A stretch of 64,000 nt of DNA, taken from positions 20,495 to 84,494 of IMG/VR virus record IMGVR_UViG_3300030116_003118; one strand, written 5' to 3'. The notes beneath the pieces were generated by a model. It worked only from the letters and a program-made list of their open reading frames with translations. It did no database searches and had not been told where the DNA came from. The position numbers were made by a program, and so were the translations under genes. The DNA is from a virus. Of this stretch, positions 23,424-29,039 are shown one piece after another. The stretch's first letter is position 1. Every line of letters starts with the position of its first letter.

Positions 23424-24392
23424 GTATGTTCGCCCGGACTAATTTGTTAAACACTTAAAATCGAAAATTTGGCCCGTAATTTATTTGCCACTTGCGTTTT
23501 TTTTCTACCTGTTTTAATTACATTCCCAGAATAAAAATGTTTTTATCATTCTTTTAGTGGTAAAAGAGACCATTAGTTTTGTATTCTTTACTTCGCGACC
23601 CCGTTTTTACAGTACATTAATTACAGGCTTTACTTTTGGTCGCTCTGTATATAGATATCACAGGTGCGGGTACTATTTAGATATACTACTAGCAGGTATT
23701 AAGATTTTAAGCCTGCTGCGACTAAATAAAACAAATAAAAATCAAAGAAAAAAAATCGTTCCAAAGCATATGGTCATGCAAATATATTTGACCCGTAAGG
23801 AATATCATTCAATCACGAATGTAATCTTCTACGCACAATTGCTGATTGCAGCAATTGTAGGTACTATGTACCTGTAGAATTATACCGCGATTTACTTCCC
23901 TTCCATATGGTCATGTAAATACATGCACCCGTCAGGAAATTCTTCCAACAACGATTGTCGTATTCAGTGTTCAGTGGAGCATAGTAGTGATAACACTTAC
24001 TATTACCCTATTTCTCTGAATACGTCATCTTATGTTTTCATCCTTCCATATGGTTCGGAGGTGAAACACGGCGGATTAACACGCATTATGAGTTATACTT
24101 CACTCATCATCGTCATAGAAAATATCCACGTTTTCACCTCCATACGAACCCGGCGGGTTGCACAACTTGTGACAACCATATGGTAATGCCTGTGCTTTGC
24201 AAACAGAATGCCCGATAAACGGGACTTACTTCATTGTTACGATTTTACAGCAATTACCCATCTTTACTCTAAAATCGCCTAATTCCATTCCGCAGGTTTC
24301 ACATATTTTAATCATTATTTTTACATCCATTAAACCAGCACCAATAGAACGAGGATTCACAATCATTACAGGAGGGAAGGGTATTTCTCATA

Positions 24393-25121
24393 CTAATCCT
24401 CCAATACCTGTTTAGTAGTCTCAGGCGTACATTCGTAATTAGCCTCGCTTTTTATACTTGTCTCACAATCAACCTCTATCATTACAACATCATCTGAATA
24501 CTTCTGTAATATATCTGTAACTGTTTTGCGCATCTTCTTCATTGTGGATAGTGGTGTTTCTACTAGCATAAACTCAATGTTCTTTCTATCGGTCACTGAT
24601 TCGGCTTCGTAAGTGATTACCATTTTTAGAGTAAAAGAACCACCGTATCCTTGTTCAAATTTGGTCTTCATTGTAGTGCCATCTTCAAACAATACTTTGC
24701 CCATAGCACCAGCAGATATTTGTTCTGCTCCTTCTGGTAATTCAAAGACTTCTTCATCCACTACTAGATATTCGCCTCTTACTCTCTTCCAATCATGGCT
24801 GCTTGTTTTGGTATAATTGGTAGCAATAGTGGCTTCAATACCATATTCATCTAATCCTTCTATTGCTCTATCAGCCTGTGAACTGTAAGCAAGAGTCATC
24901 ATAATTTGATTGTTATCATCAACAATGCTGTATGTAGTTTCTTCATCTATTATTTCTTGAAAACCATAGTTCTCTGCGCTCGGAGTTCCATAAGCGTAAC
25001 TAGCAGTTAGTGCCAAACCCTTATCAAATAGGTCTGATTGCACCTTTCTGTTCAATTTCTTGTGGTCTCTAAAACTATCACTCTTGAATTTGATTGCCAT
25101 CTTTCTTTCATATATTGTCAT
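24393..25121 (-). CDS. Acidic hypothetical protein inside a palindrome-bounded cassette
   Basis: 242 aa ORF. Confidence 0.75.
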   Translation of the reverse strand: MTIYERKMAIKFKSDSFRDHKKLNRKVQSDLFDKGLALTASYAYGTPSAENYGFQEIIDEETTYSIVDDNNQIMMTLAYSSQADRAIEGLDEYGIEATIATNYTKTSSHDWKRVRGEYLVVDEEVFELPEGAEQISAGAMGKVLFEDGTTMKTKFEQGYGGSFTLKMVITYEAESVTDRKNIEFMLVETPLSTMKKMRKTVTDILQKYSDDVVMIEVDCETSIKSEANYECTPETTKQVLED

Positions 25122-25310
25122 TTACTCATCTCCTATTTGTTCAACATAATCATTCAATGCTGACTTCATATCTTTCATTACATCTTCTAGGTTATCACCA
25201 GATACCTTTAGTTTGCTAATACACAATACTAGGGCAGACCCAGATTTCATGTGCTTAACCTCTAACACGTATTTTGGCTCGTTAATTATTGTTGCGTCAT
25301 TTGTTTCCAT
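25122..25310 (-). CDS. Small hypothetical protein, probably leaderless
   Basis: ATG at 25310 (METNDATII) lies about 22 bp downstream of a TATATATT box. Confidence 0.6.
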   Translation of the reverse strand: METNDATIINEPKYVLEVKHMKSGSALVLCISKLKVSGDNLEDVMKDMKSALNDYVEQIGDE

Positions 25311-25331
25311 ACATCTTATTAGTTTTATCAG

Positions 25332-25373
25332 AATATATAGGGTGAGTGTTAGCAAAGCACACTACCATATGGT
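25332..25373 (-). promoter_or_regulatory. Putative promoter: palindrome, CTTTG box, TATA box
   Basis: Minus strand reads ACCATATGGTagtgtgCTTTGctaacactcaccCTATATATT. Confidence 0.6.
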
Positions 25374-25397
25374 TTGCTTTGCGTTAAACCCGGATGG

Positions 25398-25426
25398 AGA
25401 ATAGGGGGTAATTACCCCCCTATTCT
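25398..25426. terminator. Hairpin at 3' end of the 25420..25965 gene
   Basis: AGAATAGGGGGTA-at-TACCCCCCTATTCT. Confidence 0.5.
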
Positions 25427-26075: not shown

Positions 26076-27906
26076 TATGAAGTAGGCTACAAAAGAGTTC
26101 AGGCTACAGCCACTCGCACTCTATAGTGCGAATCTAAATGTGGTGAGATGTGCCTGAAATCTATTGTAGTCGCTCAATACCCCAAATCGGGTTTTGTCCG
26201 ACTCAAACAATAATAGACGGTAAATCAAGTTTTAGACTTAACCAATGCTGCTTTCGCTTAGGCTAGATACATTGTGTATCTTAGCAGCCTTAGAGCCTTC
26301 TTATTGATGTAGTTAATTTTAACAACATCAATAATTAAAACATGATAAACCATCTATTAACTCATCGGACAACCATATGGTTGAGTTTAGATAATAGTAG
26401 AACTTTCGAAACGTAAAGGAGGGCTTTCGAAAGTGCATACCTAGCGTGGTAATTCTCAATTACAGCCAAAGTGATAGCGTAGTATGCAGTATCGAAAGAA
26501 CGAGTTTAGGTTTCGAAAGGCTACTTATCATAAACGACACCCTATTTCTTTTGTCGGGTATAAACCTTTACGCTGCGTTATACGAGCAGCACATCCTTCG
26601 TGACGCTTTGGCTCTTATTATGAATAATCACTTCAATTGTACTGCCGTATAACGCGCTCTTTTTGTTTATTACCATATGGTTTTGCTTTGCGAATAAACC
26701 AGATTTCAAATTGAAGGATGCGAGTGATTATTGATTATGGGGGCAAATCTTCGGCATCACCTTAATTCCCCTCACTCGACTTATTTCCTTCAATGGGCTT
26801 GAATCTGAATGGGTTTTGTTTTGTGCTTTCCTAAGGCACTCTCAGACCCGACTGAGTAAATGAAAGTGTAGGGGAGATTATGTTTCCACATCTTCCCAAT
26901 TCCGAATGCGTGTTAGTTTTAAGAAAATTTGCTAAGTTTCTTATTAACGCCGGAATACCAGATTATGACCCCGCTAAGGGTTGTGTAGTGTGGTATCTTT
27001 TTCTTCAATCCCACTCCCTGCCCACTATAGGCTCTAATCTGTGCCTTACACCCTAACAACGGTGTTATTCAGCCACTACTTACCGGGTTGCACTCCCGGC
27101 ATTAGTAGGTAAGTAACCGAATATATGAGGTGTTCTTTCACAAAGTATCACACCATATGGTTACATAGTGTGAGTTTACGCCTAAGGCTGTATTTTGGGT
27201 CTCTTTCAATAAGAGAGTCCAAACGTGGCCAAAAGCCAGCGTTAGGCGTAAAGGAACCTTGATAACCTGACGGGTTGTCTTTTGTATTTGTAAGGCTGTC
27301 TTCGTTCAATTCAAATGGCAATCATAAAGTTTTACCTTGTTGTAACGCTTAGGCTCACTGTAATGACAGTGTACTAAGGCCGCGCACTGATTTGCGCTGG
27401 CCTGTAAAACATTATGTTACCATCTTCATCTTGCCAGCCTTTTGTTTTGTAAGACAACCATATGGTAAGGATAAACGTATGCTGGTGGTATAGGCTCTCT
27501 AAAGAGCCAATCTAAATGTTAAATACTTCCAGCATACGGAGATACACCAGATTTCTGGTCGGGTATTATGGAAAGTTTCGCTTAACTAGGGTGATAAACG
27601 GCGCAGGAAGGGTAAAGTTCTACGAAGCGTAAAACGTGTTGACTTGTATCTTGGATACATTTACTCTTTACCACTCCTGCGACCAGTTTCTCACTCCTAT
27701 TTAAGACTCAACTATTTCCTAAACCATATGGTACGATTAATTGAACAGATAGATGCCTTAATCGCTTCTGTTAAAAGTAGGCAACTGGGAAATCGAAACT
27801 GCCTACCTCCGTTTCGACTGGAAGTGTAAAAATTACACCTTCGCTCCGAAAAAAACGGCTTGTTTTTCCTTCTCGGCTTTCCAGACCCCTGAAAAACGCT
27901 ATCATT
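26076..27906 (+). other. Six consecutive palindrome-bounded, self-complementary non-coding segments (structured RNA or ssDNA)
   Basis: Long stems, e.g. 26403-26412/26510-26519, 26575-26584/26646-26655, 27175-27185/27242-27252, 27476-27485/27529-27538; no credible ORFs. Confidence 0.75.
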
Positions 27907-27944
27907 ACCATATGGTTCGGCTTTGTATAGAACCATATATATAC
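27907..27944 (+). promoter_or_regulatory. Putative promoter: palindrome, CTTTG box, TATA box
   Basis: ACCATATGGTtcggCTTTGtatagaacCATATATATA upstream of 28012, which has a GGTGA RBS. Confidence 0.6.
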
Positions 27945-28011
27945 TCGATGACCTTGCCAAGAATGCCCCCGAACAGAGGCAACGAATGATAAAAACAATA
28001 GGTGATAAAAG

Positions 28012-28521
28012 ATGGAAGATATTGAGTGGGATTCAGTAAAGATAAAAGTAAACACTATGCTTGAAGGAAACGCAGAAGTAGGTGACATACCTTCTGATGT
28101 CGTTACCCTAGCACAGATGTTAATAACGACAGGAGATAATAACTCCTCAACAAGAGATAGCCTGACTAACAGCATTAAGGACATGCTAAAGCCATACGCA
28201 GGATATCCGTGGAAGAGAGGCAATCAGGGCATTCTACCAGCCGCAGCCCGCGCTGTAGTAGATTCTGCAACTGATAACATCAGAGAAGCAGCAAGAACGT
28301 TCTTTAACGAGACTTCGCAGTATTCTCAGCCACTTCTGCGAAAGCACGGTAAGAGCAAGGGTTCCCCTGTTTACGCCGATGCTGACGAGTATGCAAACGA
28401 ACTTGCATCAAAGGCTCGTAAGGCAGCAACACAACTCTTCAAGGATGGAGAGTGGGATGGTTCGCTATCCGGCCTTGCTGCTTGTGCGGCTTATGATGAC
28501 GTAACTACGGAGGATGAGTGA
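28012..28521 (+). CDS. Hypothetical protein, HGKS...WDGS family, paralog 2
   Basis: 169 aa; LRKHGKSKG...YANE...WDGS; AGGTGA RBS. Confidence 0.85.
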   Translation: MEDIEWDSVKIKVNTMLEGNAEVGDIPSDVVTLAQMLITTGDNNSSTRDSLTNSIKDMLKPYAGYPWKRGNQGILPAAARAVVDSATDNIREAARTFFNETSQYSQPLLRKHGKSKGSPVYADADEYANELASKARKAATQLFKDGEWDGSLSGLAACAAYDDVTTEDE

Positions 28522-28558
28522 TTATCCTCCGTAGCCTATAGTTCGGGTGCATTTTCTC

Positions 28559-28610
28559 GGAGAGTGGGAATAGGGTCTTTAATGGCCTTATTCCCCTCTC
28601 CCTCTTTTCA
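28559..28610 (+). terminator. Hairpin plus T-tract after the 28012..28521 gene
   Basis: GGAGAG.GGGAATAGGGTC...GGCCTTATTCCC-CTCTCC followed by CTCTTTT. Confidence 0.5.
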
Positions 28611-29039
28611 GGTTCTTATTTCCGAGCAAAGCAGAAATAGAACCATATGGTATTAGGTTCATTATGAGAGGTGGGGCGCGAGGTGTGCCGCACCATTTAT
28701 ATGTTCTCAAGAATCCTATGGAATGCTAATCAGTATTGTCAGTATTTGAGACAGGAAAGTGCATAGTTTTCTAATGACAGTATATGAAAGAATCTAAATT
28801 AATGGCGTAAAATATTCTAGCCGTTAAAACAGATAGAAACTCTGGGTGGAGAATGTGGTTCTATATGATATATTATATCCATTATCAATACCCATATCTA
28901 TATGACATATCCTATATGATATGATAAGGAGGATTCCCTCTGAGTAAAAGAAGTCACGATATGTCATGTTTCTACTCTTTCTAGTTAGCGATAATAACGA
29001 AGTTGGGATGATGTGTTAGGAAATGAATAAGAAGTTAGT

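Follow-up and report, generated by a model that had tools for sequence, protein, structure and literature searches.

IMG/VR record IMGVR_UViG_3300030116_003118 is a single contig of 84,494 bp, estimated to be 90% complete, of which a stretch of 64,000 nt (the window, or WIN) was analyzed. Between 23766 and 28651 this window contains an array of short palindromes that separate gene-bearing and non-coding units. This array is conserved across a clade of related viruses. Our analyses indicated, with a probability of roughly 60%, that the locus is an archaeal-virus variant of mobile regulatory cassettes, similar to the PeSLs (promoter-early stem-loops) of T4-type phages. Coordinates are those of the window unless prefixed by L001–L005 or G, which denote related records.

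According to this interpretation, the locus would be a hyperplastic accessory region of a magrovirus-type virus, probably one of marine group II archaea, in which the cassettes have common boundary elements. Each boundary would comprise the invariant palindrome ACC-ATAT-GGT and, on each side of it, a hairpin arm of the form GGT-x-[loop RCTTTGY]-x'-ACC, the stem of which is free in sequence but paired. In the arm at a cassette's 5' end, the A-rich 3' strand, which terminates in ACC, would occupy the place expected for an archaeal transcription factor B recognition element (BRE) and abut a TATA-like YYATATAT box, with transcription starting ~25 nt further on, and at the 3' end there would be the same kind of arm without a TATA box. 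These boundary and promoter steps were derived from motif statistics and the ends of RNA contigs. The repeated boundaries would serve as joints for the gain, loss and movement of cassettes between related viruses, and three kinds of cargo would be present: small orphan genes that encode proteins, a single gene for a manA-like RNA, and the structured units S1, S2, S4 and S5, which are free of open reading frames (ORFs).

The Palindrome Array and Its Conservation

The core of the array, ACC-ATAT-GGT, is a perfect 10-bp dyad. The motif CCATATGG matched 13 times in the window, compared with a mean of 0.82 and a maximum of 4 in shuffled sequence, and none of 100 shuffles reached 13. This k-mer enrichment agreed with an earlier reading made from the DNA letters alone (the sequence-only reading), which had counted 12 copies clustered within 4.8 kb; the whole 84,494-bp record had the same 13 copies, with 12 clustered. 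The ten full copies it had reported were recovered as ten occurrences of ACCATATGGT in the whole record, every one between 24175 and 28651. Its central spacings (306, 300, 480, 305, 266 and 184 bp) were exact, as were its counts of three recurring boundary subtypes (three, two and two copies), and the single outside copy that it had placed in a coding sequence, at 30649, is within the ORF at 30417–31013, which matches Pyr_excise. The segments described as ORF-poor, between 26075 and 27907, had longest closed ORFs of 30–68 aa, and the locus does lie at the switch between the late and replication genes, with minus-strand structural genes changing to plus-strand replication genes there. A blastn search of 23400–29000 against 50,697 cultured phage records identified no DNA match.

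Relatives were obtained in two sets. Six IMG/VR loci were retrieved with the 169-aa gene of the array (28012–28521) as the query, and all six had palindromes (4–21 copies) in the same place; the 181-aa gene, used in the same way, retrieved no related viral locus. A scan for the pattern CAAAG-N6-ACCATATGGT produced at least 116 stretches, making 121 loci listed in all, of which 70 had at least four palindrome copies. A homologue of the N-terminal piece of the viral DNA polymerase was encoded by 20 of 31 such records among the matches listed, and by all 12 of the listed records that were at least 90% complete (46–75% identity). The palindrome was present in 7–22 copies in each of these 12 near-complete records, compared with 0–3 copies of the reversed control, and in most of those with positions listed nearly all copies were in one 4–6 kb cluster. 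In most relatives the spacing is 300–800 bp and each unit is filled by one protein ORF. An equivalent architecture in relatives, the lack of which would have counted against the sequence-only reading, was present, with one such cluster in 12 of 12 near-complete related records listed. The palindrome cluster is a clade-wide conserved feature, and the invariant palindrome is usable as a marker of such regions in viromes.

Boundary Arms and Promoters

The statistics of the arms were determined for 147 non-redundant ORF cassettes among the loci listed. Read outward from the core, most arms have the form CCATATGG-T-x-[RCTTTGY]-x'-ACC, in which x and x' are complementary and free in sequence, and the stems of these GGT-x-[RCTTTGY loop]-x'-ACC hairpins co-vary across cassettes. 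A contiguous Watson-Crick stem of at least 5 bp starting from the GG was present in 90 of the 147 5' arms (3% in shuffled sequence) and in 54 of the 147 3' arms (4% in shuffled sequence). A TATA-like box followed the hairpin in 50 of the 90 5' arms versus 6 of the 54 3' arms, at a median distance of 26 nt from the ORF start. Of the 147 cassettes, 145 had CTTT[GC] after the core in the 5' arm and 141 had it in the 3' arm, frequencies that are partly built in by the search pattern. Arms ranged from 17 to 56 nt in length. By analogy with the upstream regions of halovirus HGTV-1, the A-rich x'-ACC strand of the 5' arm would occupy the BRE position.

Both types of arm were found in the window. Four arms are of the promoter type: on the minus strand, those at 25365, 26067 and 27153 lead into the operon of the 63-aa and 242-aa genes, the 181-aa gene and the manA-like RNA, respectively, and on the plus strand, the one at 27908 leads into the 169-aa gene. 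The opposite cassette ends have arms without TATA, at 24176, 25365 (plus side), 26673 and 28643. The two-armed site at 25330–25390, around the palindrome at 25364–25373, combines the two, as its left arm with CTATATAT is promoter-like and points left, while its right arm (GGTTT..AAACC, without TATA) is the 3' end of the next cassette. The promoter arm of the 181-aa gene (26030–26075, minus) has the palindrome at 26066–26075, a CAAAG box and, by eye, an AAC-ATATAT-GGTT tract at 26033–26046. That of the manA-like RNA (27117–27161, minus; partly assigned by eye) has the palindrome at 27152–27161, a GGTGT..ACACC hairpin at 27129–27154 and an AT tract at 27120–27126, the last placed by eye ~22 nt before the 5' end of the RF01745 model. 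The promoter arm of the 169-aa gene (27907–27944, plus) consists of the palindrome, a GGTTC..GAACC hairpin (27914–27934) with a GGCTTTG loop and an AT tract at 27935–27943. The 3' arms without TATA include that of the manA-like cassette, with its palindrome (26672–26700, plus; GGTTT..AAACC), and the one at 28611–28651 (minus; GGTTCT..AGAACC with a GCTTTGC loop), which ends the array with the last palindrome at 28642–28651.

The RNA evidence consisted of contigs assembled from two metatranscriptome runs (X19 and X20) of one study, placed on 23700–28700. These contigs cover only 24736–24901, 25462–26013, 26859–27041 and 27963/27965–28562, and the deepest (26859–27041, depth 63) corresponds to the manA-like RNA. 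The contig end at 26013 is ~25 nt from the AT tract of the 181-aa gene (26036–26041, tract by eye), and the contigs of the 169-aa gene start at 27963–27965, which is 24–26 nt from the AT tract at 27935–27943. A T-run at 28553–28557 lies between the two positions at which the latter contigs stop, 28548 and 28562, both well before the 3' arm. Since the RNA contigs start 24–26 nt past the TATA-like boxes and stop before the next palindrome, the arms are outside the mapped transcripts. This geometry is what archaeal promoters give, and we regard it as supporting, although short of proof. No RNA contig in X19 or X20 covered S1, S2, S4, S5, the short unit S6 or 23700–24700, which is not evidence that these regions are silent. 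The locus provides a testable promoter model (arm, BRE/TATA, start ~25 nt downstream) that is consistent with the metatranscriptome contigs.

The TATA tracts of the leftward promoters beside S1 and S4 (26033–26046 and 27117–27135) lie between an ACC flank and a GGT flank; their sequences, AAC-ATATAT-GGTT and AACC-G-AATATAT-G-AGGT, are enlarged copies of the core palindrome, and both tracts could fire in both directions.

The same promoter arms bear on a tentative explanation that is compatible with the cassette interpretation, in which the palindrome would bind a predicted dimeric regulator, viral or host, that switches the whole accessory region, and cassette exchange would be a by-product. 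The invariance of a perfect 10-bp dyad across the clade and its position upstream of the BRE/TATA site in 5' arms are what an operator would lead one to expect, ACC(YY)ATATA[TA] occurs nine times in the record with four occurrences in the array, and an adjacent 203-aa gene (29251–29862) has a weak N-terminal match to "transcriptional regulator, D5-like" (E 0.006). However, the distance between palindrome and TATA box varies by tens of nt, palindromes are also found at 3' ends and between S units where there is no promoter, and the 169-aa paralogue has no match to a DNA-binding fold.

Exchange of Cassettes

The suggestion of the sequence-only reading that the segments are recombining cassettes was supported by comparisons with relatives, in which breakpoints were at palindromes, one cassette was in different slots, and S1/S2 appeared as an insertion in WIN. 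Homology blocks (L001 vs L003 and WIN vs L003) ended between -21 and +6 nt from palindrome centers, the breakpoints being either within ~5 nt of the centers or 18–21 nt to one side. The cassette at L001 5739–6058 is the same as that at L003 8743–9052, in a different slot. From the 181-aa-type gene to the manA-like cassette, the window has the order palindrome-S1-palindrome-S2-palindrome, where one two-armed site is present in L001 and L003.

The two ends of a cassette were also compared with each other. Based on a common-substring test, they share a box of at least 10 nt in 51 of 303 cassettes among the loci listed, compared with 1.6% of arm pairs drawn at random and 1.0% of pairs that flank a single palindrome. 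The only private matched end box in the window is that of the 24176/25365 cassette, for which TGTGCTTTGC, in the rightward arm of the palindrome at 24175–24184 (ACCATATGGT), is matched at the other end (25365). The mean number of identical letters directly after the core was 1.44 for the ends of one cassette vs 1.29 for random arms, a prefix test too narrow to reveal the private boxes of this minority of cassettes.

Searches of the record for Phage_integrase (PF00589), Y1_Tnp, RVT_1, rve, DDE_Tnp_1, TnpB TNB and Resolvase produced no matches, which at an estimated completeness of 90% falls short of proving their absence. Since no recombinase or transposase match was found in the record, we infer the mechanism of exchange, which may be recombination of the general or short-homology type, or else a template switch at hairpins of the kind proposed for PeSLs. 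The sole hint of a recombination-type gene in the record is a weak AAA_24 match at 51910–52773 (27.5 bits, cut-off 27), AAA_24 being Sak4-like and linked to recombination.

It is unlikely, in our estimation, that the cassettes are moved by a dedicated integron- or transposon-like system, in which a hypothetical enzyme of the virus or host would recognize the folded arms, with their conserved GGT/ACC base and CTTTG loop, cassettes would enter a palindrome that is duplicated like a target site, and arrays would grow only at existing palindromes. Such a system would account for arms that resemble attC sites (the base is conserved, the stem varies freely in sequence but stays paired, and the length ranges over 17–56 nt), for insertions bounded exactly by palindrome copies, for a 10-bp core that is invariant down to 46% polymerase identity, and for the matched boxes at both ends of 51 of the 303 listed cassettes. 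Single mismatches in arm stems also favor G.T (12 of 52) over A.C (4 of 52). Against this, all seven recombinase and transposase families were without a match in the record, each cassette has its own promoter, unlike those of integrons, 83% of cassettes have no private matched box, and the copies are not near-identical, unlike those of miniature inverted-repeat transposable elements (MITEs).

Two sets of unusual joints were seen in DNA runs. The joints 25632>27040 and 27926>28316 have low support, with sides of 25–26 nt, and look like relatives' contigs that have short conserved cores in common. In run X9, one contig of depth 2.3 joins 27162 back to 26801, a joint without a palindrome on both sides, which could be an artefact of assembly or reflect a related strain in which the manA-like cassette is tandem or circular.

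Protein Genes and the manA-like RNA

The protein-coding cargo on the minus strand comprises a 242-aa gene without family match (24393–25121), a gene of probably 63 aa (25122–25313) and a 181-aa gene (25420–25965), and on the plus strand there is the 169-aa gene (28012–28521) that is conserved in relatives. The in-frame ATG of the 63-aa gene (25313, by eye) is only ~22 nt from a TATA-like tract at 25332–25339 (by eye), and for this reason its mRNA is probably leaderless. The 181-aa and 169-aa proteins are paralogues (27% identity, E 4e-12) with HGKS..WDGS in common, and their genes, divergently oriented, bracket the non-coding center of the array. The 169-aa family has 47 marine homologues. An AlphaFold model of this protein (pLDDT 76.8) has six helices and is all-helical, and its comparison with the PDB identified no match at E up to 0.001 and no DNA-binding fold. 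Pfam, PHROGs and NCBIfam had no match for the 242-, 77/63-, 181- and 169-aa proteins, and the ESM Atlas had no usable match for the 242-aa protein.

The cassette at 26681–27152 contains a manA-like structured RNA gene (26863–27101, minus strand), which matched positions 1–192 of RF01745 full-length with the conserved boxes present, at 32.0 bits (E 2e-5 to 2e-6) and hence below the gathering score of 55.2. Full-length matches, at 44.0–46.9 bits and likewise below 55.2, were found in four relatives (L001 8469–8703, L003 8119–8350, L004 7701–7929 and L005 7188–7422). Among the five sequences, 42 of 70 pairs were kept through two-sided changes in the structure calculated by RNAalifold, which is not that of Rfam. 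The RNA is not in a 5' untranslated region (UTR), as its cassette ends ~190 nt after it, and the sole overlapping ORF is an unsupported one of 33 aa (26790–26891, minus). At gathering thresholds Rfam identified only a tRNA-Leu in the window; the Rfam check that the sequence-only reading had proposed, made for 23000–29500 at E up to 10, yielded manA as the one credible match, the other ten looking like chance.

The left edge of the array is marked by a degenerate core with one mismatch, AGCATATGGT, at 23766–23775. It is followed by TCCATATGGT copies at 23902–23911 and 24045–24054, and the stretch of 23776–24175 is thereby divided into three small ORF-free units of ~125–135 nt each, with folding z-scores of -3.0 to -4.5. 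The first two are direct-repeat paralogues, and the unit at 23911–24045 is 86–93% identical in L001–L003. Altogether, the inter-palindrome units in the window are 122–1181 bp long, some containing genes.

Structured Units without Open Reading Frames

The central region contains four larger ORF-free structured units. S1 (26075–26372, plus) has a module, consisting of a hairpin and AATCTAAATGT, at 26114–26141. S2 (26381–26672, plus) is separated from S1 by a palindrome without a CTTTG arm (26372–26381) and has a possible degenerate module at 26449–26474, seen by eye only. S4 (27161–27457, plus) has two hairpin domains placed back to back, with GGTTA/TAACC and GGTTGTCTT/AAGACAACC as their closing pairs and ACC-TGACG-GGT at the joint, and a degenerate module at 27201–27226. 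The palindrome at 27457–27466 separates it from S5 (27466–27723, plus; module at 27493–27519), and that at 27723–27732 separates S5 from the short S6 (27732–27907), the last 56 nt of which are 95–96% identical in L001–L003.

The folding excess expected from the sequence-only reading was present in S1, S2, S4 and S5 (z -8.3 to -10.1, palindromes included) and absent from S6 (z -1.5 and -0.9); with their flanking palindromes, the four larger units folded better than every one of 100–200 shuffles. Its further claim that one strand folds, made from G-T asymmetry on the plus strand, was not supported, as z-scores and energies were about equal on both strands and G-U pairs numbered 0–7 per ~100 pairs on the plus strand and 1–11 on the minus strand. 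Moreover, the single segment matching a known RNA family, the manA-like RNA, is on the minus strand, counter to that claim. The statement that the segments are unique in sequence was only partly right, as S1 and S5 have the exact hairpin and AATCTAAATGT in common and S4 has a degenerate copy at the same offset.

The module is a co-varying hairpin of 5–8 bp followed by AATCTAAATGT, with the variants TCCAAACGT in the window and CCTAAGTGT in relatives. It was found in WIN, L001, L002 and L003, in both orientations, 53–96 nt from one palindrome and 200–250 nt from the next, and the stems of nine aligned instances differ yet remain paired. A relaxed scan for it (up to two mismatches) was unspecific, with 604 of 635 hits outside short inter-palindrome units, and module calls were restricted to exact or near-exact hits at the recurrent offset. 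A scan of the collection for the palindrome, a gap and AATCTAAATGT matched 14 stretches, with several matches only in the L001 and L002 contigs; the 12 singletons are about the chance number estimated. In L005, 6612–8139 consists of units of 105–160 nt with a recurring ACGCTAAGTG(T/G)AA motif, which resembles the module core CTAARTG.

In a structured family termed F1, 16 of 93 pairs were changed on both sides and 2 of 93 on one side only, and the mid-stem is replaced wholesale between close relatives with pairing retained. The S units are mostly unalignable to each other, and relatives with flanking genes of 75–96% identity have unrelated sequence in their place. RNAalifold predicted no pairs for ten "domain 1" sequences, which is not evidence against structure as MAFFT cannot align hypervariable stems. 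In a search for antisense targets, exact matches between S units and other parts of the record were at most 12–14 nt long, no longer than those of shuffled sequence.

With a hairpin and AAUCUAAAUGU-type module in at least S1, S4 and S5, we consider S1, S4 and S5 (and, by eye, S2) to be a lineage-restricted family. Since S4 comprises two GGT../..ACC domains joined at ACC-TGACG-GGT, the S units look like back-to-back enlarged arms without cargo. As a guess, they may be lineage-specific non-coding cassettes, either as RNAs fired rightward from the symmetric TATA boxes or as DNA hairpin elements. They add a small family of extremely folded non-coding cassettes to the contents of the locus.

The sequence-only reading had offered an RNA array processed at the palindrome as an explanation of these units. 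In the form considered here, S1–S2 and S4–S5–S6 would be transcribed rightward from the TATA tracts at 26033–26046 and 27117–27135, with transcripts that begin at a palindrome and are cut at the internal ones into ~300-nt RNAs, each with a AAUCUAAAUGU module. The co-variation of the nine aligned module hairpins, their recurrent offset (53–96 and 200–250 nt) in WIN and L001–L003, the folding z-scores of -8 to -10 and the 16 of 93 F1 pairs kept through two-sided changes would all be expected of such RNAs, and the ACC/GGT flanks of the TATA tracts (by eye) would put a rightward start at the palindrome. Nevertheless, we think this quite unlikely. There is no strand bias and there are very few G-U pairs on either strand, whereas the manA-like RNA shows many G-U states; one-sided intermediates are almost absent from F1 (2 of 93 pairs); the modules occur in both orientations; and the same palindromes fence protein genes whose mapped RNAs exclude them. 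As a general rule, cutting at the palindrome is not supported, in view of the relatives, in most of which each unit is one protein gene, and of mapped RNAs that exclude the arms.

That the S units and arms instead fold in single-stranded or supercoiled DNA, a version of the folded ssDNA element offered in the sequence-only reading, as hairpins or cruciforms at or beside an origin with a role in replication or genome entry, is very unlikely despite the equal folding of both strands, the almost purely Watson-Crick helices, the location of the locus at the cumulative GC-skew minimum (~27000–28000) and the position of the arms outside mapped transcripts, for the S units are swapped for unrelated sequence in relatives with 75–96% identical flanks, the skew switch coincides with the gene-strand switch and hence is not independent evidence, a more conventional origin candidate adjoins (CTATATGAYAT repeats and the AT-rich tract at 29047–29075), and arms flank every cassette rather than one site.

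We also speculate, giving the idea little weight, that the arms and the cargo-less S units may serve as substrates for an undescribed system by which archaeal viruses insert cassettes under the guidance of hairpins; the palindrome would be targeted and duplicated, and the S units would be non-coding cassettes (RNAs or DNA hairpins). If this speculation is correct, the wholesale swapping of S mid-stems with retention of the apical AAUCUAAAUGU module would be consistent with a role in specificity or as a decoy in an arms race between virus and host or between viruses.

The Viral Record and Its Host

The left arm of the record has genes for the portal and large terminase (TerL) on the minus strand. 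In the right arm, a B-family DNA polymerase (DNAP) is split into two ORFs (53545–55203 and 55459–56385), and genes for an RFC-like ATPase, an ATP-dependent ligase that has an N-terminal domain, and a ribonucleotide reductase are also present. The top matches of the polymerase among cultured viruses were haloarchaeal tailed viruses (~25% identity), and those of TerL were Bacteroides jumbo phages followed by Halogranum virus HGTV-1 (23% identity), the best archaeal-virus match. Philosof et al. (2017; PMC5434244) describe magroviruses as abundant in the ocean and without a cultured host, and a split DNAP as a mark of group B. The record has a head-tail module together with an archaeal-type replication module containing a split B-family polymerase, as a group B-like magrovirus would. 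Based on the gene content, the polymerase and TerL matches and this split DNAP, the record very probably represents a magrovirus-type virus of marine group II archaea.

Among the 20 matching records of relatives, the first polymerase piece is an open frame of 550–576 aa in 17; it has ~800 aa in G012 and G020, and in G002 a frame of 586 aa was matched as two pieces. A tRNA-Leu gene (anticodon TAA; 30372–30458) is located ~1.7 kb to the right of the array, where relatives have one or two tRNAs. Three CTATATGAYAT direct repeats (28861–28922) and a 29-nt tract of pure A/T (29047–29075) are located in the 600 bp of non-coding DNA that separate the array from the first replication-arm gene, and together they are a more conventional candidate for an origin or early promoter than the S units.

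Points against the Cassette Interpretation

Several observations weigh against the locus being an array of PeSL-like cassettes. The RNA contigs are assemblies from one study, and such contigs cannot prove transcript ends or strand. PeSL stem-loops terminate transcription, whereas the mapped RNA ends here precede the arms, and hairpins upstream of a transcription start serve no obvious purpose in a plain promoter. Arms of such variable length (17–56 nt) speak against a protein that bridges palindrome and TATA box at a fixed distance. The search pattern for the second set of relatives holds CAAAG, so the near-universal CTTTG is partly built in for one arm per locus. The cassette model leaves the strong folding of the S units unexplained, and the empty search for seven recombinase and transposase families supplies no enzyme for the exchange. 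Lastly, the magrovirus assignment is based on gene content.

Comparison with Known Systems

The sequence-only reading had proposed a candidate undescribed system, which was partly right, in that the closest kinds, the PeSLs and the HGTV-1 motif, are already published. A CRISPR array was rejected on account of the 10-bp repeat core (not ~23–50 bp) and the units of 122–1181 bp, genes included, in place of short spacers similar in length.

Integrons are arrays of promoterless cassettes with attC hairpins, an adjacent tyrosine-recombinase integrase and a common promoter. The locus resembles them in being a cassette array with boundary hairpins that differ in length and in stem sequence while pairing and the base are conserved. 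It differs in that no tyrosine recombinase was found (PF00589, no matches in the record), each expressed cassette has its own TATA-like box, hairpins are at both ends with a palindrome in common, and the carrier is apparently an archaeal virus. MITEs and other small elements with terminal inverted repeats occur in many near-identical copies and depend on a cognate transposase. The ORF-free units of 100–350 bp are similar to these in being strongly folded, with inverted terminal sequence and a duplicated short site; however, they are not near-identical multi-copy units, and no match to Y1, rve, DDE_Tnp_1 or TnpB was found in the record.

The manA RNAs, according to Weinberg et al. (2010; PMC2864571), are from marine metagenomes, cyanophages and two gamma-proteobacteria, and are candidate cis-regulators. 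The manA-like RNA agrees with that account of the motif (RF01745) in its full-length model match and marine viral setting. In contrast, it is a stand-alone cassette with its own promoter rather than part of the 5' UTR of a metabolic gene, and its carrier is apparently an archaeal virus, not a cyanophage. Its presence as a gene of its own in such a virus bears on the view of manA RNAs as bacterial and cyanophage cis-regulators.

Literature searches identified no work on palindrome-bounded intergenic cassettes of archaeal viruses that was relevant by title or abstract and none on TATA promoters of Poseidoniales, and a search for CCATATGG in phages returned only primer noise. Nothing in print was found on promoters or accessory-gene exchange of magroviruses; the magrovirus papers searched, supplements excepted, make no mention of palindromes, promoters, or intergenic or non-coding sequence, and "repeat" in them refers only to terminal repeats or assembly.

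The virus HGTV-1 provides the closest archaeal comparison to the promoter arms. According to PMC3950731, Sencilo et al. (2013) described a conserved TATA-box and inverted-repeat motif before its ORFs and likened it to PeSLs. In the HGTV-1 genome, upstream regions read CGAAACC-TTTATATT ~25–30 nt before the ATG. As in this array, the virus is an archaeal tailed virus, a TATA-like box and inverted repeat precede many ORFs, and ACC is directly before the TATA box. Unlike the array, 16 upstream regions from one stretch of that genome showed no palindromic core in common, a comparison that covers these sequences and, for the published motif, its description.

The PeSLs of T4-type phages, as characterized by Arbiol et al. 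(2010; PMC2839356), are repeated intergenic elements with a promoter and a stem-loop, and indels and replacements between relatives are bounded by these motifs. The array has the same repeated intergenic combination of promoter and stem-loop, with a promoter of archaeal type, the same concentration in a hyperplastic region before orphan genes (here 12 of 13 copies in 4.8 kb), and the same bounding of indels and replacements between close relatives by the motifs. Relative to that account, the promoter is BRE/TATA-like where the PeSL promoter is sigma-70, neighboring cassettes have an invariant 10-bp palindrome in common, the hairpin, with a conserved CTTTG loop, is located upstream of TATA, and arms are at both ends of cassettes, some of which have no gene. 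Experimentally shown promoter and terminator activity and mini-circles excised by exchange from motif to motif also characterize the PeSL kind; the corresponding observations for the array are the RNA contig ends 24–26 nt from TATA tracts, which give no indication of termination at the arms, and the one low-depth joint in run X9. New here are a palindrome that is invariant and common to neighboring cassettes, arms at both ends that co-vary and have a conserved loop, private end boxes in part of the cassettes, and cassettes that are non-coding. The array makes accessory-gene turnover visible in a manner that parallels the PeSLs across the divide between bacteria and archaea.

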